Source: Gekko japonicus
Lineage: Eukaryota
Assembly (NCBI RefSeq): GCF_001447785.1
Contig: NW_015172565.1
Span: forward strand, 992,578 to 1,056,577
Direction: 5' to 3'
DNA: 64,000 nucleotides
Shown: positions 3,179 through 17,877 of the stretch, one piece after another
Layout: every line of letters begins with the position of its first letter
Position numbering within the stretch: position 1 is the first letter of the stretch
Program-made: the position numbers and the translations under genes
Notes under the pieces: model-generated
Database searches by the model: none
Told to the model about the DNA's origin: nothing
The model's input: only the letters and a program-made list of their open reading frames with translations

Positions 3179-5995
3179 TTGTTGTTCAGTCGCACAGTCA
3201 AGTCCGACTCTTCGTGACCCTATGGACCAGATCACGCCAGGCCTTCCTGTCTTCCGCCGAACTCTGAAGTTTGCTCAATTTTATGTTCGTTGCATCTATG
3301 ACACTGTCTAACCATCTCATCCTTTACCGTCCTGTCTTCTTTGACCTTCAATCTTTCCCAGCATCAGGGTCTTCTCCAGTGAGTGCTCCCTTCTCATTTG
3401 GTAGCCAAAATATTTGAGCCTCAGTTTCATTATCTGGCCTTCCAGGGAACAGTCAGGGTTGATTTCTTTTAGGATTGACTGATTTGATCTTCTTGCAGTC
3501 CAAGGGACTCTCAAGAGTCTTCTCCAGCACCATAGTTCAAAAGAATCTATTCTTTGGCGCTCGGCCTTCCTTATAGTCCAAGTCTCGCAGCCATACATGA
3601 CTACTGGGAATACCATTGCTTTGACCATGCGGACTTTTGTTGGCAGGGCGATGTCTCTACTTTTTATCATGCTGTTTAGGTTCGCCATCGCTTTCCTCCC
3701 AAGGAGAAGGCGTCTTTTAATTTCATGGCTGTCATCACAGTCTGCGGTGATCTGGGATCCCAGGAACGTGAAGTCTGTCACTACTTCCACGACTTCCCCT
3801 TCTATTTGCCAAGGAGTGATGAGGCCGGAAGCCATGATCTTAGTTTTTTTGATGTTGAGCTTCAAGCCCACTTTTGCGCTCTTTTACTCTGAACAAGAGG
3901 CTCTTTTTTTTAGGTCCTCTTCACTTTCTGCCATTGCTTCTTGGCCCTTATACAGGTTTCTCAAGAGACATGTGAGGTGGTCTGGTACTCCCATCTCTTT
4001 AAGGACCTGCCATAGTTTGTTGTGATCCACACAGTCAAAGGCTTTAGCATAGTCAATGAAGCAGAAGTAGATATTTTTCTGGTACTCTCTTGCTTTCTCC
4101 ATAATCCAGCGAATGTTGGCAATATGATCTCTCGTTCCTCTACCTCTTCGAAACCCAGCTTGTACTTCTGGTAGTTCTCTATCCACGTACTGTTGAAGCC
4201 TAGCTTGTAGGATCTTGAGCATGACCTTGCTAGCGTGTGATATGAGTGCAATTGTGCGATAGTTTGAACATTCCTTGGCGTTGCCCTTCTTTGGGATTGG
4301 AATGTATACTGATCTTTTCCAATCCTGTGGCCACTGTTGCGTTTTCCAAATTTGCTGGCAAATGGAGTGCAGCACTTTAACAGCATCATCTTCTAAGACT
4401 TTGAATAGCTCAGCTGGAATACCATCACCTCCACTAGCTTTGTTGTTAGCAATGCTTTCTAAGGCCCATTTAACTTCACATTCCAGGATGTCTGGCTCAA
4501 GGTCAGTGATTATACCGTCGTGTTTGTCAAGGACATTGAGGTCTTTCTTGTATAGTTCTTCTGTGTATTCTTGCCATCTTTTCCTAATCTCTTCTGCTTC
4601 TGTTAGGTCCCTACCGTTTTTGTCCTTTATCATGGCCAGCTTTGCATGGAACGCTCCCTTGATTTCTCCAATTTTCTTGAAGAGATCTCTAGTCCTTCCC
4701 ATTCTATTGTTTTCTTCTATTACTTTGCACTGTTCATTCAGGAAGGCCTCCTTATCTCTCCTTGCTGTTCTCTGGAAATCTGCGTTCAGTTGGGTAAATC
4801 TTTCCTTTTCGCCTTTGCCTTTCGCTTTCCTTCTTTCCTCTGCTATTTGTAAAGCCTCATCAGAAAGCCACTTTGCTTTCTTGCATTTCTTTTTCTTTGG
4901 GATGGTGGTGATTGCTGCCTCCTGTACGATGTCACGAACCTCTGTCCATAGTTCTTCAGGCACTCTATCTATCAAATCCAGACCCTTGAATCTATTCTTC
5001 ACCTCTACTGTATATTCATCAGGGATGTGATCTAGGTCAAACCTGAATGGCCTCGTGGTTTTCCCGATTTTCTTCAGTTTAAGTCTGAATTTTGCAATGA
5101 GTAGCTCATGATCTGAGCCACAGTCAGCTCCAGGTCTTGTTTTTACTGACTGGATAGAGCTTCTCCATCTTTGACTGCAAATTATATAGTCAATCTGATT
5201 TCGGTGTTGCCCATCTGGTGATGTCCATGTGTAGAGTCGCCTCTTAGGTTGTTGGAAAAGGGTGTTCGCTATGACCAGTGTGTTCTCTTGACAAAACTCT
5301 GTTAACCTTTGCCCTGCTTCATTTTGCTTTCCAAGGCCAAACTTGTCTGTTATTCCGGTTACCTTTTGACTTCCTACTTTAGCATTCCAGTCCCCTATGA
5401 TGATATCATTTTTTGGTGTTAGTTCTATGAGGTGTTGTAGGTCTTCATAGAACTGGTCCACTTCAGCCTCTTCTGCATCAGTGGTTGGGGCATAGACTAG
5501 GATTACTGTGATGTTGAAAGGTTTTCCTTGGAATCGCACTGAAATCATTCTATCATTTTTGAGATTGTATCCCAGTACTGACTTTTGCACTCTCTTGTTG
5601 ACTATAAAGGCCACACCATTTTTTCTACGAGATTCCTGGCCACAGTAGTAGATATAATGGTCTTCTGAGTTAAATTCACCCATTCCTGTCCAGTTTAGTT
5701 CACTGATTCCTAAGATATCAATGTTCAGTCTTGCCATCTCATTTTTGACCACGTCAAGTTTACCTTGATTCATAGATCTTACCTTCCAGGTTCCTATGCA
5801 GTATTCTTCTTTGCAGCATCGGACTTTCCTTTCACCATCAGACAGATCCACAACTGAGCGTCCTTTCGGCTTTGGCCCAGCCGCTTCACTCTTTCTGGGG
5901 TTACTTGTACTTGCCCTCTGCTCTTCCTCAGTAGCATATTGGACACCTTCCGACCTGAGGGGCTCATCTTCCAGTGTCATATCTTTTAGCCTTTT
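3179..5995 (-). mobile_element. BovB (RTE-clade LINE), near full length, RT core deleted
   Basis: ORF 5980-3884 has an AP-endonuclease (ILGISEL, IIIGDWNAK, QIDYI, SDH) and the RT N-terminus (QAGFR, FIDYAKAFD). ORF 3871-3317 is the BovB C-terminus. (CAA)n-type tail at ~3179-3190. Confidence 0.95.
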
Positions 5996-6488
5996 AGACC
6001 AAATAGTGGAAATAGATATCTTTTAATCTTTCTGGATGATACTCAGTTGCATATCTGCTAAGGCAAAAGAGTAAAGTTCACAAATTCCTCAAGAGATACA
6101 TAGATATTTGGAAGAAAATCCTCAAATGCCACATACAGATAACGGTGGTGAGTTTATATCACATCACACACAAACCTTCTTGGTATCCTCAACAAGAAGT
6201 TAATGAGCTTTACACCTGAGCAGAATGGCACTGCTGAAAGGAAATCTTCAATGGAGATGAGCAAATGCACACTCATGAATGCAGGCCTACCCAATAAATG
6301 GTGGGGCAAAGCAATCCTGACTGCAAACTATCTCCAGAACAGACTGCCCACAAAAGGGAGCACACATATACCTTACCAGATACACCATGGCAAGGTGCCA
6401 GACATGGGACACATTAGAGTATTTGGAAGTAAGCCCTTCTCATTTGAAGTTTGTGTCAAGCATGTGATTCACTTTGATGAAAGCAGAG

Positions 6489-7426
6489 CAAGGCTGGAAA
6501 ACTGGGTTAAAACACATTTAATGAATTTCAGTAGGAATAAATGTAAAGTTCTGAATTTAGGTAGGAAAAATCAAATGCATAATTATAGGTTGGGGGAGAC
6601 TTGTCTTGGCAGTAGTATGTGCGAAAAGGACCTAGGGGTCTTACACTGAACATGAGTCAGTGTGATGTGGTTGCTAAAAAGGCAAATGCCATTTTGGGCT
6701 GTATCAACAGAAGTATAGTGTCCAGATCATGCAAAGTGATGGTACCACTTTGCTCTGGCTATACCTCACCTAGAATATTGTGTTCAGTTTTGGACACCAC
6801 AATTTAAAAAGGATATAAAAAAGCTGGAACATGTCCAGAGGAGAGCAACGAAGATGGTGAGGGTATGGAGACTAAGTCCTATTAGGACAGGTTGAAGGAC
6901 CTGGGTATGTTTAGCCTGGAGAGGGCTGAGAGGTGATATGATCACCAGCTTCAAGTACTTGAAGGGCTGTCGTATAGAAGAGGGTACGAAGTTGTTTTTT
7001 GTTGCCCCAGAAGGTCGGACAAGAACCAATGAGTTGAAATTAAAGCAGAAATGTTTTCGGCTAAACATTAGGAAGAACTTCCTGACAGAGCAGTTCCTCA
7101 GTGGAGCAGGCTTCCTCAGGAGGTGGTGGGCTCTCCTTTTTTGGAGGTTTTAAAAGAGAGGCTGGATGGCCATCTGACAGCAATGCTGATTGTGTGAACT
7201 TAGGCAGATAATGAGAGGGAGGGCAGGAAGGGTTGCCTCAGTGTTTAGTTCTTGTGGCCCTTTCTCCAGGCTGGTTTGGCCAGGGATCCTGGAGGTTTTT
7301 GGTCATCTTCTGGGTGTGGAACAGCGGTCACCGTGGGTGTGGAGGGGGAGGTATTTGTGAATTTCCTGCATTGTGCAGGGGTTTGGACTAGATGACCCTG
7401 GAGGTCCCTTCCAACTCTATGATTCT
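6489..7426 (+). mobile_element. 5'-truncated CR1 LINE inserted in the copia relic
   Basis: ORF2 C-terminal peptides (KCKVLNLGRKN, EKDLGVL, AKKANAILGCI, FKYLKG) plus the CR1 3' UTR; AGAG on both flanks (6485-6488, 7427-7430). Confidence 0.92.
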
Positions 7427-8299
7427 AGAGAAGGGACTGCATCATGTGACACAGAAAAAGCAGATGACCTGTACTGGCTCTTGACTTTGAACCAGTATGC
7501 AATGATGAAACATTAGAATAAGACACACAACCTGAGAATGCAGATTCTGAAGCAATCGTGCCAGAGATTCAGAGCAGTGCAGGTGTACTGGACAGCTCTG
7601 TAACAGCAGATGAAAATCCAAGACCATGCCTCTGATGCTCATTGTGACTGAACAAAGGCATTCTAACCTTCTGCTTGTCCTACTTCGCAAGGTCAGTGTT
7701 ACCATCTGAACTTTGTACTTCGGAGGAAATAGGATAGATGGCAACAACCAAAGCCAGTAGGTGGAAGAAGGCAGAACAAGAGGAGATTGATACTCTACAC
7801 AAAAATAAAATGTGGACCTTGACAAAGCTACCACTAGGAAAGAATCCTATTGGATGCAGGTGGGTGTTTAAGGTCAAAGAAGATGCTGACAGAAACGTGG
7901 AATGTTACAAAGCAAAATTAGTTGCTAAAGGCTTCTCACAAAAACATGGTACGGACTTTGATGAAGCCTTTGCACCAGTGGTGAAACATGGTACAATCAG
8001 ATTACTTTTGAGCATCGCAGGGTCCAAGAAGATGCATGTCAAACATCTAGATGTAAAGACAGCATTTCTTCATGGGGAGGTTCAAGAAGATCTGTACATG
8101 GAGCTGCCAGAAGGTTTTATAGACCCCAAACAACCAAATTTAGTCTGCAAACTGCAGACAGGGCTGTATGGACTAAAACAGGCAGCATGTGCCTGGAACA
8201 AAAAATTACATGCAGTGCTCATAGTGCAAGACTTCAAGCAAGGAGAAGCGGATTCATGTCTGTACACTAAACACAAAGATGGATATTGTACTTATATAC

Positions 8300-8940
8300 T
8301 GTCATGAGCTGGGCTGGGCCAGGAGGCAGAAGTCAGGTCCGGTCTGGGGGGGTCATAGCCAGAAGAGACAGAACGGGAGCCGAGTCAAGAGTCCAAGAGA
8401 ATATTCGTCTGAAGCAGGAGGTCAGAAGGCTGGAATCAAAATAGGAGCAAGATCTGGGAACAGGAACCGAGGGTGGGTGCAAGGTCAGCACGGATGCAAC
8501 TTGTTGCTTCCACAGAGAGCCCAACCCTGAGTGGGAGCTATACAGGCCTCTGGCAGTGCTTCCCTCAGTGATGGTGGCGCTCCTGTCAGTACTCAGGGCT
8601 CGGCACCCGCCTTCCCTACCAGAATGTGTCTCAGTGGCAGGTTGCTAAGCCCCTATGGAGCTGTTCCCTCAGTTGAGCCACCTGTGGAGGTGAATCAGGC
8701 GGGCTTTCTGTTTGCACATGTACCTTGTCGGCTCCTGCAGGGGGGATTTCTGTTTGCACCTGTACCTCGTCAGCTGCTGCAGGACCAGGTGCAGGGATTA
8801 CTGGCTCCGGCGCTAGTGGCGGCAAGCTGTCAACTCCCGAGGAGTCAGAGGAGCCAGCTTCCAGCTCTGGTGACACCAGCGACTCCGGCTGCACTGACAA
8901 CTTGGGCATGGGCCTGGCGCTGTCGCCACCGCCCATGACA
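8300..8940. mobile_element. Solo LTR (641 bp, family unassigned) inserted in the copia RT
   Basis: Termini TGTCATG...CATGACA; 5-bp TSD TATAC/TATTC; removing it restores copia TYILTYVDDL. Confidence 0.85.
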
Positions 8941-9264
8941 TATTCTCACATATGTTGATGACTTGATTCTGTGTTATGACAGGCAAACAGACTATAACAG
9001 TGTGGTAGGGTGCCTAAACAGAGAAACAGAAATTAGGGAGCTAGAAGATGTTTCTTACTACTTGTGCATACAAATTGAAAGGAAGTAGGATGGTTAATTT
9101 CTCCTAAACCAGAGACAGAAAATAGTTGAACTCTTACAGATATTAGGTCTAGAAAATGCCAACGCAGTGGCAACACCTATGGAAACTGACTTTCTTAATA
9201 ATACCAAAATAAGTGAGCCTTTACCTAAAGACAACCAGTACAGAAATGCCACAGGGAAACCTCT

Positions 9265-11048
9265 TTTTTTTTTTTGAGCCCCCGGAGGGGATTTTTTATT
9301 GATTTTTTATCACTGCAAAAAACTACAACAGAAAAAAGGGAAGGGGAAAACTACACATACGGGAGAAAGTAAAGTACCCACTACTAACTAAAAACCCAAG
9401 AGAGGCGATCCTCCAACTAGCTTTTATACATCCAGTCTTTTCATTGTTTTTCTTTTTATGAACTGTGTCAAACTTTTAAATTTTTTTACCCTCCCAGTTT
9501 ACATTTAACTGCCCAATAACAGTGCCCCCAATCATCCCCAGGAACCAAAGTTCTCAAAGGCACAATTCAGAGTCCTTCAGCCTTTTTACTTCTTCTTCTC
9601 TTCCGCAGCTTGTAGGGACTTTTCGGGGCTGCTGCCCCCCGCTCAGACAGAGAGCCCTCACCAGATGAACCAGTTTCCAGCTCGCCACTGGACCAGCTGT
9701 CCTCTTCTTTTTTCTCATCCTCTGGCCTTCCCAGCTGTTCCTTTAGAAATTCTTGAGCTTTCAGAACAGAGTCAATCTTTTCCTTCTTCTCTTTAATCTT
9801 AAATGTTACTCCTTCTGGAAATAGCCATTTATATCCAATTGAGTTTGTTTGGAGAAAGAGCACAAGTTCTTTATATTTCTTTCTGCGTTGTCTTACTTCA
9901 AATGGAATATCCTTTAGTGTTCTAACAGCATTCTCCCCTGCCTTCAGGGGTGTTGCAGCCACTGCTTTCAGGATAGCATCCCTGATGTGCCTCTTCGAGA
10001 ATCTTACTACAATTTCCCCAGGCAGATTATTTTTCTTTATATATCCTGAATATGACCTATAGGCCACATCCATATCGTTAAGTAGCAAGTCCGCCTTTAT
10101 TTCTGTGACTGGGGCAAGTAATTCACTCATAAGTTCTTTAAGATTCTCTCCTTTGTTCTCTGGCACCCCCTGGAAGCGCAGGACCATGTTGGCCTTATCC
10201 ATTTGTACTTGAAGCATTTGATCTTCTAAAGAAGAGGTTTTCTTTTCCAATTTTTGCACTTTCTTCTTCACTTTCTGCGTTTATTCAGCTACTTCCTTTA
10301 CTTTCTCAGCATCCTGCTTCATTACTTGAATCAGATCAGTTATTTGCGTTTGTTGCGCAGAAATGCTCTGTGTTACCATGGACATCTGCTCTTTGAAGTT
10401 ATTCAGCTGTTCCAGTAGAGGGCGCATGAACTCAGCTATAGCTTTTGCCGTCTCACTGGTCGTTTCTGGCTTAGGGGACTCTAGTTTCGTTTTCAAAAGT
10501 CTTTCTTTGTCTTTGTCCCTCTTCCTTGCCATCTTTTACTTTCGGAAAGTTTTCAAAAGTCTCTGAATATGCGCTTGACTGCTTAGCTTGATTGGGTAAG
10601 TACTTCTGGGCAATTTAATCGCGTTTCTCCCCCCCCCACTCAACAGTTTATGCGTTTGGGAGGTGTCCCCCCCTGCTCGCTTTTCCCGTTCCGTGGAGTA
10701 GGGCAGTGAGCATCTTTTCTTTCAAAAATCATTTCCCAGTTGACTCACGTTCATAGTTGGCCTTCCGACCACACTTCTTTCATCATTTTTCACACCCGAT
10801 CTCCTGCGCTTGACTCGGTTAGCTTTACTTGTACCATTCGGTCTCTCGGCTGGAAGAACCACCGGAGCAAAGGGGCGCCTCAATTCTCTGGCATTCCATC
10901 ATAGAAGAAGCTCCTTGGCCAGGGTCCCTTCGCCGGGCCCCTGGGGGGGGTTATGAGCCTACTTGCCCCCTCCTTCCACCGGAGCACGGAGATACCCCCA
11001 GGAGGTCCGGGAGGTGAGTCCGCAAGCGTGCCGCCATCAACCGGAAGT
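9265..11048 (-). mobile_element. L1-like element encoding ORF1 only (HAL1-like), 1.78 kb
   Basis: GC-rich 5' UTR starting GACTTCCGGTTGATGGCGG, then ORF1, a ~290-nt 3' UTR, AATAAA and poly(A); 16-bp TSD CCACAGGGAAACYTCT at 9249-9264 and 11049-11064. Confidence 0.9.
9567..10532 (-). pseudogene. L1 ORF1p-like reading frame (321 codons, one in-frame stop at 10281-10283)
   Basis: ORFs 10532-10281 and 10271-9567 are in the same frame: coiled-coil N-terminus, RRM motifs LRFQGVPE and EIVVRF, and C-terminal domain RQRRKKY...YKWLFP. Confidence 0.88.
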
Positions 11049-11741
11049 CCACAGGGAAACTTCTATACCTAACCACCACTAGCAAACCCGATATTACAAG
11101 CAGTGTTGGGATTCTTAGTAGAATGACAAGTGCACCAAGCAAGAAAGAGTGCAATGCAGTAAAAAGAGTGGCTGAATATCTAAAAGGAACTTTAGATTTA
11201 AAACTAAAATTGCCATCCTCCAGTAATCTAAAATTAGTTGGTTACATGGATACAGCTTGGGCAGAGTTGGTTACATGGATACAGCTTGGGCAGGAGACAG
11301 TTTAGACTATAAATCCACAGCTGGGTACTTGTTCCTGTATGGAGGTGGACCAGTCTCCTGGGCCAATAGAATGTGAACTAGTCAGTTTGTCATTCACAGA
11401 CTCTGAATATATAGCATATGCTGAAGCATCCAGAGAACTACTATGATTAGACCAGTTACTAAAGGACTTTGGAGTTGATGAGCAAAAGCCAATTCAACTT
11501 TAATTCAATTCAACATTAAGATTTCTCAATCAGAAAAAAATGGCTGCACGCACTAAGCACATTGGTGTGAAGTTTCACTTAGTGTGTGACCGAACTGAGA
11601 AAGGCATAATAGAGTTGGAGTACTGTTCAACAGAAGAGATGGTGGCTGACATCCTGAACAAACCGCTATCAAAAGACAGATATGAAAAACTACAAAATAA
11701 CCTGAATCTTGAGAACTCTTAGATAAGATGTTAAGAAGGGG

Positions 11742-13098: not shown

Positions 13099-13547
13099 TG
13101 TGTTACCTCCGTTTCCTTGAAATCTATTTACTATAAGCACACGACTCCAAATCACCCACAGCAGGTCCTGCGGCAGACATGACTACCTGAAGAGATGATC
13201 TGCACAGTTTTCCGGGTATTTTTGACAATTACATGGCTTTAATTTACAAAGAAAAACAAAAGTTTCTGTCTTGCGAGGTCTTCCCAGCTCCTGCATTCAA
13301 GGCTTAGGAGCCCTTTTAAAATCGTTACGTTTTCTTTTGCCGCTCGAAAACTTGAATGGATGCTAACAGCCCCTTCCTGCTCTCCTCGGTTCAAAGAATT
13401 GATTACTTGGGGGCAGCTATTGTGCAAAATTTACAGTTTATTAACTCGAAAGAAACACAAACTGAGCGGTCGGAAGAGTCCTTTCTGCCTTGCAGCGGGG
13501 CGGGTTTTGCAGAGGACCAATCACAAGGCGGCTCTTCTCTATAAATA
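13099..13547 (+). promoter_or_regulatory. Histone H1 promoter: TG box, AC (H1) box, GC box, CCAAT, TATA
   Basis: TGTGTTA 13099-13105; AAACACA 13453-13459; GGGGCGGG 13497-13504; CCAAT 13517-13521; TATAAATA 13540-13547. Confidence 0.9.
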
Positions 13548-13616
13548 AACAGCGGCTGACCTACTTGAGTTCACTTTTTTCTCCATTGGTGATTTTATTG
13601 CGAGGTCTCCGCAGTC

Positions 13617-14264
13617 ATGTCTGAAACGGCGCCTGCTGTGGCAGTTGCTGCTGCCGCGCCAGCTCCAGCCTCCAAGGCTCCGGCCAAAAAGGCGAAGAAG
13701 GCTGGAGCGGCCAAAGCGCGCAAGCCTTCGGGCCCCAGCGTCACCGAGCTGATCACCAAGGCGGTGGCTGCTTCCAAGGAGCGCAAAGGCGTCTCCCTGG
13801 CAGCTCTCAAGAAAGCTTTGGCGGCTGGAGGCTACGACGTGGAGAAGAACAACAGCCGTATCAAGCTGGGGCTGAAGAGCCTGGTCACCAAAGGGACTCT
13901 GGTGCACACCAAGGGCATCGGCGCCTCTGGCTCCTTCAAACTGGGCAAGAAATCCGGCGACGCGAAGGAGAAGGCCCCCAAGAAGAAGCCCGTCAAAGCC
14001 AAGAAGCCTGTGGCGAAGAAGGCTGCCGGGGCAGTCAAGAAGCCCAAGAAGCCCGCCGCTGCCAAGAAGAGTCCCAAGAAGCCCAAAAAGCCCGCGGCTG
14101 CCAAGAAGGCGGCCAAGAGCCCCAAGAAGGCGAAGCCTGTCAAGCCCAAGAAAGTGGCGAAAAGCCCGGCCAAAGCGAAGGCGGTGAAGCCCAAGACTGC
14201 GAAAGCCAAGACCGCCAAGCCCAAGGCGGCAAAGGCGAAGAAGGCGGCGCCCAAGAAGAAATAA
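13617..14264 (+). CDS. H1: Replication-dependent linker histone H1, 215 aa
   Basis: MSETAP start, globular domain (GPSVTELI...[31 protein letters not shown]), K/A/P-rich tail, intronless, 3' stem-loop. Confidence 0.98.
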
Positions 14265-14306
14265 ACCTCCGATGACCCATCCGTTCCTTGCTTTCAAAAA
14301 CCCAAA

Positions 14307-14346
14307 GGCTCTTTTAAGAGCCACCCACTTAGTCTAAAAAAGAGCT
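14307..14346 (+). terminator. Histone 3' stem-loop and downstream element (H1)
   Basis: GGCTCTTTTAAGAGCC 14307-14322, then ACCCA, then AAAAGAGCTG at 14337-14346. Confidence 0.95.
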
Positions 14347-15051
14347 GGCACGCGCCTTGGGCAAAGGCGATCCCTCCTGGAGCTGTCCCTTGACAGGCTT
14401 GCAACAAGCCTGAAGTTAGCTTCTCGGGTGGTTTAATTCCCATATATTTACAATAATTGGAGGGGGGGTTCACTTTACCATAGAAGGTAGTAGAAGAAGC
14501 CAAAGGTAGCCCCGAAAAAGCACAGTGCAGTTCATACCTGAATTGGGATTTTAATGTATCTTGGGGAAGTAATTTAGGCTTAGGCGAGAGGGAAACTAAC
14601 GAGTGAACACAGCGAGTCAAGTACTACCTTGCAGATGGTCAAAAGCGGTTTTTCTGCAGCTGGCAATTTTTTCAATTTCAATTAATCATTGGGATTCGAA
14701 TTGGGGATCAGCAGCATTCTCCCGGACAGGTGTGTGCGGGGGGGGGGGGGGGAGGCACTTTGCTTCTCTTCTATATTACAGGAGATGTTTACAATTTCGG
14801 TTTTCAATGTTCAGTGAACTGAGTGGGACTCTTGAATATAAACGTGTGTAGGATTGGGTTTCAATTAGTTAAATCGTTGTATGGAAAGAACCTTCGAGTG
14901 TAGTATCCGAATCTATTTCTAGCATTAATGCTTGCTGAAAGCCGCTGACAGAAGAAACAACGTACTTTTGGGGCGGGAATGAGTACGGATGATCATATAC
15001 TGCAAAGGACTGAAATAAAGAACTTTTTCCTGTGTGTAGTAGTTTATTAAA

Positions 15052-15222
15052 CTATATTCAGGTGGGTAGCCGTGTTGGTCTGAAGCAACAGAACAAAGTG
15101 AGTCCATTGGCACCTTTAAGACCAAAAATTTTTAATTCTGCCTATAAGCTTTCAATGTGTATGCGAAAGCTTATACCCAGAATTAAACTCTCTTGGTCTT
15201 AAAGGTGCCACTGGACTCATAC
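15052..15222. mobile_element. Penelope-like inverted-repeat fragment
   Basis: GGTAGCCGTGTTGGTC head and long inverted arms (15099-15125 versus 15193-15219); related copies at ~32480-33045 and ~37370-37535. Confidence 0.65.
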
Positions 15223-15392
15223 TTAAAGTATGTTTACGCGGAAGCCCGATTTAATTCAGCAGTTCTTAACGCCCATTTATTTTGGAGGGGAAGTGGCGCT
15301 CCAAATAATTTGTAAAAATGTTTTTGTGAATGAACATTGCGCAGGGTTTATTTACCGGCCTTTGATTTGCCACCGTAGTTAGTGCAACTTGT

Positions 15393-15979
<587 letters not shown>

Positions 15980-16005
15980 GCCCTCGCCCTTGATTTTAAC
16001 CCAAA

Positions 16006-16021
16006 GGCTCTTTTAAGAGCC
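16006..16021 (+). terminator. Histone 3' stem-loop (H2B)
   Basis: GGCTCTTTTAAGAGCC preceded by CCCAAA. Confidence 0.95.
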
Positions 16022-16155
16022 ACCTATTTTTTCAATAAGAGAGTCCTATCACTTTCGAAACAACTCCATTAACTCCGTATTTTTTCTATGTAATAAGACT
16101 AAAGTAGAAGTTTAAGGTGGTCTCTTCTGACCGGAACTATATAGTGCTAGCCTAA

Positions 16156-16467
16156 GCTGCAGTGGCTGTGGAAGGTTAGTAGTTCAGCAGTTCGAGACCC
16201 GGGTGCCGCATGATGGAGTGAGCTCCCATCTCTAGTTCCAGCTCCTGCCAACCTAGCAGTTCGAAAGCAAGAAATTGCAAGTAGGTAAATAGGTACCACT
16301 TCGGTGGGAAGGTAACAGCGTTCCGTGCACCTTGGTGTTTAGTCATGCCGGCCACATGACCACGGAAACGTCTTCGCACAGCGCTGGCTCTTCGGCTTTG
16401 AAACGGAGATGAGCACCGCAACCCTAGAATCGGATTCGACTGGCTTTCGAGCAAGGGAACCTTTACC
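16156..16467 (+). mobile_element. Sauria SINE (head internally deleted)
   Basis: CCTGCCAACCTAGCAGTTCGAAAGC core and ACCTTTACC tail; near-identical to the reverse complement of 42488-42839. Confidence 0.88.
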
Positions 16468-17209
16468 TAAAGCAGGTCTCTCCGAATCGGAGAGCTGGTG
16501 TGTCCCCGAAGTCAATACATAATCATTTTCTTAAAACTGGCTGTCTCACAATGAGAACTCAGCCATTGAACTATGTCACTAGAAGGAACGTTGATTTTAA
16601 TCGTGTTTACTTCCACGTTGGGAGTATGCCTTGCAGCCCAAATTGCATAAATCAAATCAAGCCGCCACTTCCACGGAACGTCCGTTGGAATTTTGAAATT
16701 CCCGCCTTGAGCGGTTATTGGCCAGTGAGTCCAGATTCCTCTCTTGCTTAGAAACTAGGGCGAGTAAAACAGCCACACACACCCAACAGTAGGATGAAAG
16801 GCATCGTGTTCGTAAATATCATTTTCGACTTAGTTTCAGTATTTACCCCTGCCTAAGCTGCGCGTGTGGTAAAATAAAGTCTTTTTCAGAAAAGTTTATC
16901 AAACAATCCACACCCTCTCAACCGAACAGAAGATTTTATAGACAGTGCATAAACGTAGAAAGACGGCTGCTACTTCTACTTTCCTCTGTTCGCTAAGTTC
17001 TGTTCTCAACCGAAGTGTTTTTAGTGTAGGGGGGAGGGGAATCGTACAGGGAAACGTGTTTGCTACATCTAACAAGTTAAAAAGGATTTCTGTGAGGAAA
17101 TATCAAGGAAAAGTCAACGAGTCTGAGACTTAAACGAATATTTAGTATTTAAAAAGCAGTTGCGTAACGCAAAATGGAGATGAGGGATTTATAAGAGTTT
17201 TCAAATTAT

Positions 17210-17323
17210 CCAATGAGATTTTGGTTTTCCAGACTCGGCCAATCAAAAACAAGCTCTATTAACCAATGGTGAAAAGGCATTTATTCTACATCAGCCAATC
17301 AAAAGGCAGGGTTGGTGTATAAA
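17210..17323 (+). promoter_or_regulatory. H3 promoter: four CCAAT boxes and TATA
   Basis: CCAAT at 17210, 17239, 17263, 17295; TATAAA 17318-17323. Confidence 0.88.
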
Positions 17324-17329
17324 TTTTGA

Positions 17330-17782
<453 letters not shown>

Positions 17783-17829
17783 TTGAAAGGCTCCTCCGAG
17801 CGGCGCCAAACCGCGCAGAAAACCCTAAA

Positions 17830-17877
17830 GGCTCTTTTAAGAGCCACTACATGATCCCAGGGAAAGCTAAAGAGCTG
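17830..17877 (+). terminator. Histone 3' stem-loop and downstream element (H3)
   Basis: GGCTCTTTTAAGAGCC 17830-17845; AAAGAGCTG 17869-17877. Confidence 0.93.

Follow-up and report, generated by a model that had tools for sequence, protein, structure and literature searches.

The window analysed here, a stretch of 64,000 nucleotides of the Gekko japonicus genome, raises the question of whether an L1-like unit that encodes only ORF1 is a solitary accident of retrotransposition or belongs to a family of elements that move without an ORF2 of their own. The unit lies on the minus strand at 9265-11048, is about 1.8 kb long, and is flanked by a 16-bp target-site duplication (TSD) within a copia-type LTR retrotransposon (Table 1). 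We consider it very likely that this unit represents a defunct member of a multi-copy LINE-1 derivative that has only ORF1 and probably spread as polyadenylated RNA by means of the ORF2 enzyme of complete L1s.

Table 1. Features of the half-L1 unit and its insertion site in the window
Feature	Position	Strand	Remarks
Host copia-type LTR retrotransposon, left flank	8941..9248	+	decayed; RVT_2 match further left, 7738-8304
TSD, 3'-end copy	9249..9264	+	16 bp, differs at one base from the 5'-end copy
Poly(A) tail	9265..9275	-	11 nt
Short C-run/G-run hairpin	9279..9290	-	between poly(A) signal and tail
AATAAA polyadenylation signal	9295..9300	-	precedes the hairpin
Conserved pyrimidine/T-rich 3' block	9310..9402	-	common to ORF1-only families C, D, and E
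3' UTR	9276..9566	-	about 290 nt, no ORF2 remnant detected
L1-type ORF1 (coiled coil, RRM, CTD, acidic/basic tail)	9567..10532	-	stop at codon 84 (10281-10283)
5' UTR, putative internal Pol II promoter	10533..11048	-	three small private deletions
5' terminal motif GACTTCCGGTTGATGGCGG	11031..11049	-	variant of the anole clade-1 L1 5' consensus with a short spacer
TSD, 5'-end copy	11049..11064	+	pairs with 9249..9264
Host copia-type LTR retrotransposon, right flank	11065..11720	+	decayed

A preliminary description of this locus is largely confirmed at the level of the single insertion. The two copies of the claimed 16-bp TSD are identical at 15 of 16 positions, and the 3' UTR without ORF2, the AATAAA signal, and the poly(A) tail were all found in place. 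The description had also held that removal of the unit restores the copia reading frame exactly. Support comes from aligning each copia flank on its own with 19 other copia copies: in 16 of these the two flanks overlap by exactly 16 bp, in one by 17 bp, and the remaining two have indels of their own. Because this overlap equals the TSD length, as between an empty and a filled site, both the insertion and its TSD are real. The empty-site joint itself was not seen in two DNA runs. Two details hold for the window copy in part. The 321-codon ORF1 with a single stop is present, but the family frame has 317 codons; the extra codons result from the loss of 5 nt close to the end of ORF1, a deletion private to this copy, and the stop is likewise private (1 of 30 family copies). 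The 5' UTR that was called intact-looking does have an L1-type 5' end, but it lacks 13, 10, and 12 nt that most other copies have. With a divergence of 4.4% from the majority sequence, the window element is a dead copy of what we call family A.

The host copia element is itself dead, carrying stops and other insertions. One of these occupies window positions 8300-8940; it is about 640 bp long, has 7-bp inverted ends of the TG...CA type, and is possibly a solo LTR. An exact 29-bp tandem duplication occurs in the right flank (11236-11293). Fragments that we take to be CR1-like, at about 6470-7430, likewise interrupt the host copia element, and the 712-aa frame at 3884-6022 on the minus strand is presumably RTE/BovB-like. 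On the other side, the window contains what we assume to be a histone gene cluster (13150-17870, with H1 at 13593-14264 and H2B at 15548-15979) and presumed histone-type 3' stem-loops at 14299, 15998, and 17822.

A DNA search of the gecko's own genome with the unit gives 43 matches at 40 scored places. These places were drawn from 7,297 first-look candidates, and copy counts are therefore lower bounds. The whole unit is found in one piece at 27 of the 40 places, comprising the window copy and 26 others with 81-92% identity, which excludes the possibility, raised in the preliminary description, that it is a single copy. The copies share both their 5' and 3' ends. Among 70 family-A loci, 43 have the 5' motif, and a TSD of 11-22 bp flanks 33 of these 43, in agreement with the prediction that many copies would share the ORF1-3' UTR-poly(A) junction and yet have TSDs of their own. 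Chance TSDs are excluded by a control with mismatched flank pairs, none of which (0/252) has a TSD that reaches 10 bp. The 33 target sites have a T at position -1 in 19 cases and an A at positions 0-3 in 23, 23, 17, and 24 cases, respectively. A majority sequence built from 30 copies measures about 1.83 kb and contains a 317-codon ORF; individual copies differ from it by 2.6-11.6%. Its 5' UTR (551 nt) has 56% GC and 41 CpG dinucleotides. All 150 scored matches in a genome search with ORF1 have at least 88% identity. An 18-mer of the subfamily closest to the window copy occurs 36 times and is present in 10 of the 29 copies of that subfamily, which implies that this subfamily alone has approximately 100 ORF1-bearing copies. 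One family-A copy (L067:1171-3006) has its 5' 490 nt inverted relative to the rest, and such 5' inversion is a hallmark of twin priming by L1.

None of the 70 family-A loci has an ORF2 of its own within the downstream sequence checked, which extends 1.5 kb in 30 loci and about 5.5 kb in 40. The tails are unseen in five loci that run into assembly gaps (L032, L034, L035, L053, and L069) and in three that are clipped at the 3' end (L026, L037, and L060). Where ORF2 sequence touches the tail (L049 and L036), it belongs to a host L1 whose ORF2 continues on both sides of the insertion, and in L054 a piece from the middle of an ORF2 lies 320 nt past the tail. Open frames of 500-700 aa that might have been ORF1-ORF2 fusions are mostly the result of assembly gaps or chance read-through. 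An assignment as an autonomous L1 was rejected because no ORF2 with endonuclease and reverse transcriptase domains follows ORF1, and an assignment as a SINE was rejected because family A encodes a 317-aa protein under selection and begins with an L1 5' terminus.

The ORF1 protein is divergent. It scores below the cut-off of the Pfam Transposase_22 model (E = 0.08-0.11), and a word-index protein search with it returns no relative at E = 0.001 or better, whereas a profile search does recover protein relatives. The best PDB match of an intact family-A copy is human L1 ORF1p, both as a single sequence (E = 9e-4) and, with greater significance (E = 7e-12), as a profile built from 12 ORF1-only and 5 autonomous ORF1 rows. 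In the predicted structural model (mean pLDDT of 72), residues 26-114 form a long helix, and an RRM and a CTD are also present. Its top 11 Foldseek matches are all L1 ORF1p, and its identity to the human protein is 17-22%. Identity to ORF2-linked ORF1s of the same genome reaches 30-36% (E about 1e-37). By these sequence matches and the model, the family-A product is an L1 ORF1p. Its named relatives are gecko and snake (squamate) proteins. Two gecko proteins that group with L1 ORF1p, P0002 and P0004, are named 'apolipoprotein A-IV-like', a likely misannotation. Three unnamed public proteins on contigs of 1.3-1.5 kb (P0001, P0151, and P0006) resemble two of the related families described below, with 63% identity in the case of family C and 81% in that of family B, and these may reflect the presence of the lineage in another species.

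Purifying selection on ORF1, which the preliminary description had offered as a check on the existence of a family, is borne out. Selection was assessed in the 65 of 70 family-A loci with a near-full ORF1, which form subfamilies whose majorities represent 29, 29, and 3 copies, the other 4 copies remaining in pairs. The three majorities are separated by dN/dS values of 0.10, 0.17, and 0.13 (0.08-0.22 without CpG codons), and an older relative (L118) gives 0.14. Changes shared by at least four copies have dN/dS values of 0.15-0.17, and singletons have values of 0.70-0.73. Low values for shared changes and high values for singletons indicate that selection acted on source elements and that near-neutral decay followed insertion. 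The frame is open in 35 of the 65 loci, a proportion that is biased, as are the copy-level dN/dS values, because 40 of the 70 loci were picked by protein score.

Four further ORF1-only families (B, C, D, and E) were met among the fetched autonomous L1 loci. A search with each gives 150 scored matches, among which the lowest identity is 82% for B, 78% for C, 81% for D, and 69% for E. No ORF2 of their own follows ORF1 in 30, 20, 20, and 20 loci of these families, respectively, and the three ORF2 matches near them belong to host L1s or lie on the opposite strand. Mean identity in the ORF1 core is 43-61% between the five families and 33-38% between these families and 23 autonomous ORF1s. A tree separates 28 ORF1-only rows from the 23 autonomous ORF1s with a support of 100/100. 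Support for the ORF1-only group is 89 when 50 outside proteins are added and 98 when 21 rows from an unselected sample are added; as both of these wider trees come from quick, midpoint-rooted runs, a single origin is favoured only. At the 3' end, a block of 85-119 nt in family A is 74-80% identical to that of families C, D, and E. Family B has no BLAST match to this block, and the block is absent from all 82 autonomous ORF2-end stretches.

A 15-nt core of the 3' block occurs 6,276 times in the genome, compared with 5 times for a control. The first 40 loci with this tail motif by contig order provided the unselected sample. None of these (0/40) has an ORF2 upstream, 32 have an ORF1 of the clade type, and 23 keep the 5' terminal motif by a strict pattern. 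At a threshold of 70% identity, the ORF1-only rows form 10 clusters. Identities between the sampled ORF1s and the five families span 40% to 78% without a break, and these ORF1s form nested clades. With one autonomous ORF2 end as the query, only 8 of the 150 matches listed have an identity of at least 80%; autonomous L1s are still numerous in total. Thus, ORF1-only L1s in this gecko, as judged by comparison of their sequences, appear as a diverse group of at least five families, and the elements number thousands.

Elements of this group are often found in or beside autonomous L1s (L104, L105 with two, L112, L118, L190, L182, L049, L036, and L280), and 4 of 20 fetched L1 loci contain one or more of them. 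This nesting may reflect either a high density of elements or a preference for A-rich L1 DNA. L190 at first had the appearance of an autonomous L1 whose ORF1 is 52% identical, and proved to be a nest of separate insertions. The L1 of L280 was rejected as a parent because its ORF1 is more distant (24-28%).

The 3' termini of families A-D have a common order of poly(A) signal, short hairpin, and poly(A). A G/C hairpin precedes the poly(A) in 36 of the 40 unselected tail-bearing loci, a descriptive figure since the pattern was defined after the ends were viewed and the loci are related. No hairpin exists at the same position in 49 autonomous L1 ends, where the spacer between signal and tail has a median length of 8 nt. 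The stems are mostly C/G runs of 4-7 bp, and loop sequence is variable, with 14 kinds among 33 ends. The stems of families B and C differ from the others, that of B entirely. Some subfamilies of family B (sampled as L120-L149) have the same hairpin and A tail without a canonical poly(A) signal, and the majority sequence of family E has no hairpin. Many autonomous L1 3' UTRs (L180-L199) contain a short TGCATGATGTAATGCA-like palindrome that precedes the poly(A) signal by approximately 20-30 nt and could possibly form a stem-loop of their own.

Three of the 40 unselected loci are complete units of 1.45-1.49 kb with little or no match to ORF1. When one is used as a query, all 40 scored places have 92-100% identity, so this family, which we designate F, has at least 40 copies. 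Its majority sequence (n = 20) has ends like those of family E and no ATG-initiated frame longer than 52 codons. Copies differ from the majority by 4.5%, and this divergence is about equal to that of family A. Its members (L329:1490-3000 and L356-L375) have the 5' UTR, 3' block, and hairpin of the lineage along with an eroded ORF1. Another locus, L348, represents a second, different reduced type. Because a non-coding family with the ends of the lineage also spread, ORF1p in cis is not strictly required. Given that family F lacks an open ORF1 and the family E majority lacks a hairpin, neither feature is indispensable.

If the coding families move as we propose, then the CpG-rich 5' UTR would drive transcription by Pol II. 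The RNA would encode its own ORF1p, which would coat the RNA and aid its entry into L1 ribonucleoproteins; supply of ORF1p in cis likely raises efficiency and would not be essential. L1 ORF2p would then grip the poly(A) tail, probably helped by the adjoining small hairpin, introduce a nick at a T|AAAA-like site, and prime reverse transcription. Since the RNA is short, it would often be copied to its 5' end. We infer that L1 ORF2p is the probable mobilising enzyme because the TSD length and target bias of family A resemble those of 13 autonomous L1s from the same genome, which have TSDs of 13-18 bp that are mostly A-rich at the start; the 5' inversion in L067 points the same way.

The parent L1 was not found. 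Repeat sampling covered about 1.4 Mb of the 2.5-Gb genome. No autonomous L1 with a matching 3' tail was present among 82 ORF2-end stretches and none with a close ORF1 among the sampled ORF1s. The 5' and 3' UTRs of family A match nothing in any fetched autonomous L1, and the 3' segment matches none of the inter-ORF regions of 40 fetched autonomous L1 loci. A comparison of the 3' UTR with full-length L1s, as the preliminary description had proposed, therefore sets the unit apart from the autonomous elements sampled. In three RNA-seq runs from one study, 4,266, 270, and 2,559 reads match the family with at least 88% identity. These reads fall on both strands without a pile-up at the start, and coverage is patchy at 98% identity. 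They consequently indicate that relatives are present in RNA and do not speak to promoter activity, and they contain no sign of transcription of the window copy.

How these families arose is a separate matter. A single old ORF1-only L1 parasite may have radiated in the lizard lineage into at least 10 coexisting families and thousands of copies, with a divergence as deep as that of the autonomous L1s it exploited, winning L1 ORF2p in trans by means of an Alu-like hairpin and spawning a non-coding Pol II derivative. We put this history forward tentatively, as a possible one. If it is true, then the steps that lead from a LINE through a half-LINE to a SINE-like element, a parasite of a parasite, would be visible within one genome. 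It is unlikely, in our estimation, that the families instead arose separately and recently from an unsampled or extinct autonomous L1, with the tree grouping and the tail inherited from that parent and the mechanism unchanged. Such repeated origins have a precedent in mammals, where HAL1 arose several times (consulted sections of PMC5753468), and the 5' motif and C/T-rich 3' UTR fit autonomous clade-1 L1s of anole as partly described in PMC5381506. More distant L1 lineages also exist in the gecko genome and are barely sampled, and the midpoint rooting of the quick trees with supports of 89 and 98 leaves room for this explanation. The unselected sample weighs against it, with no upstream ORF2 in any of 40 tail-motif loci and a clade-type ORF1 in 32, as do the 30, 20, 20, and 20 loci of families B-E without an ORF2 of their own. 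Moreover, a continuous grade of identity from 40% to 78% in nested clades is what long ORF1-only descent predicts.

The terminal hairpin could also be read as a recognition signal for the enzyme of another LINE, such as RTE/BovB, CR1, L2, or Tx1. Stringent LINEs do recognise 3' stem-loops, the position of this hairpin is conserved, and RTE and CR1-like elements are plentiful nearby. However, the loops vary (14 in 33 ends) and the family-B stem is different, which is unlike a sequence-specific signal. The poly(A) tails, TSDs of 11-22 bp, and A-rich target starts match those of local L1s, whereas the tails of RTE, CR1, L2, and Tx1 elements are short repeats instead of poly(A), and we regard mobilisation by such an enzyme as quite improbable. 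Even less probable is that selection on ORF1 reflects a benefit to the host, with a domesticated L1TD1-like gene throwing off retrocopies. Domestication of ORF1 is known (PMC4161310, in the sections consulted) and purifying selection is strong here, but the copies start at an L1 5' terminus, and the many parallel subfamilies in nested clades, with synonymous distances of 22-53%, are unexpected from one or a few host genes. The preliminary description had itself noted that the unit could be a one-off product, made when an ordinary L1 transcript was polyadenylated prematurely or when ORF2 was deleted after insertion. Inter-ORF regions of lizard clade-2 L1s are 270-384 nt long, a length like that of the unit's 3' UTR, but in the autonomous L1s whose ORF1s are nearest, the inter-ORF region is overlapping or short and has no similarity to it. 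Dozens of copies have the same ends and different TSDs, and the subfamily structure evolved under selection, so that the chance of a one-off event is practically negligible. 

The clade-1 L1s of lizards are among the closest known systems. They begin with a 5' terminus of the GACTTCCGG...ATGGCG type, for which the anole consensus is GACTTCCGGTGN8ATGGCG, and they share with the gecko unit an ORF1 with coiled coil, RRM, and CTD and a C/T-rich 3' UTR of approximately 300 nt ending in AATAAA and poly(A) (Boissinot and Sookdeo 2016, PMC5381506, in the parts consulted). According to the same parts, they differ from it by their ORF2, by their length (about 6.4 kb, compared with 1.8 kb), and by a 5' UTR of about 1.3 kb instead of 0.55 kb. 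HeT-A of the Jockey clade and Ag-Sponge of the CR1 clade also keep ORF1 and borrow reverse transcriptase, but these are other LINE clades in insect hosts (PMC5786205, consulted sections). Human Alu RNA provides a parallel for the 3' end. The consulted portions of PMC10830416 report that poly(A) and a stem next to it in the RNA are bound by human ORF2p, a proposed aid to Alu competition, and that unpairing the stem, which is much longer than the gecko stems of 4-7 bp, causes only a modest loss of activity. Alu and the gecko elements would be alike in that their RNA, copied in trans, has a stem-loop beside its poly(A). By the description in those portions, Alu differs in being a non-coding, 7SL-derived Pol III transcript with a long stem, whereas the gecko RNA is protein-coding and probably made by Pol II.

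The half-L1 strategy itself was previously described for mammals, as HAL1, in the consulted parts of PMC5753468, PMC5786205, PMC4161310, and PMC13756887. We found no half-L1 from a reptile in the literature; Repbase and Dfam fell outside this search, and an entry may exist in such a library. Neither PMC5381506 nor PMC6050309 uses the term HAL1, and the consulted sections of PMC5203782 contain no ORF1-only family. Because the ORF1s escape the Pfam L1 ORF1 model and relatives are named 'apolipoprotein A-IV-like', repeat libraries of reptiles may list these elements under wrong labels or lack them. They extend the half-L1 strategy to squamates and suggest that it can be abundant and long-lasting. 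Selected coding families beside a non-coding family with the same ends offer material for testing why ORF1p is kept in cis without ORF2p, and families with and without the terminal hairpin offer material for testing how an RNA overcomes the cis preference of ORF2p.

HAL1 (half-L1) of mammals was reportedly treated by Smit in 1999 and by Bao and Jurka in 2010. The portions of the cited papers that we consulted describe an ORF1p-only, non-autonomous L1 derivative with an L1 5' end, poly(A), and TSDs that is presumed to use ORF2p in trans, and the gecko element is alike in each respect. HAL1-type elements are built in two parts, one from the 5' and one from the 3' region of a parent L1 (PMC5786205, consulted sections); the gecko 5' terminus fits the anole clade-1 consensus, and the UTRs match no fetched autonomous L1. 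The gecko elements differ, as far as these descriptions go, in comprising many families with 43-61% identity that group apart from the sampled autonomous L1s, and in having a conserved 3' block, a terminal hairpin, and a non-coding derivative. Their host is a squamate, and their ORF1 is of the squamate L1 type, which makes an origin separate from that of HAL1 most likely. The nearest named relatives are likewise squamate and identity to human ORF1p is only 17-22%, so common descent with the named HAL1 families of mammals (HAL1, HAL1B, HAL1M8, and others) is unlikely, and sequence comparison indicates that the gecko lineage very probably arose independently. The gecko element is thus a real squamate half-L1 that is probably HAL1-like in its workings.
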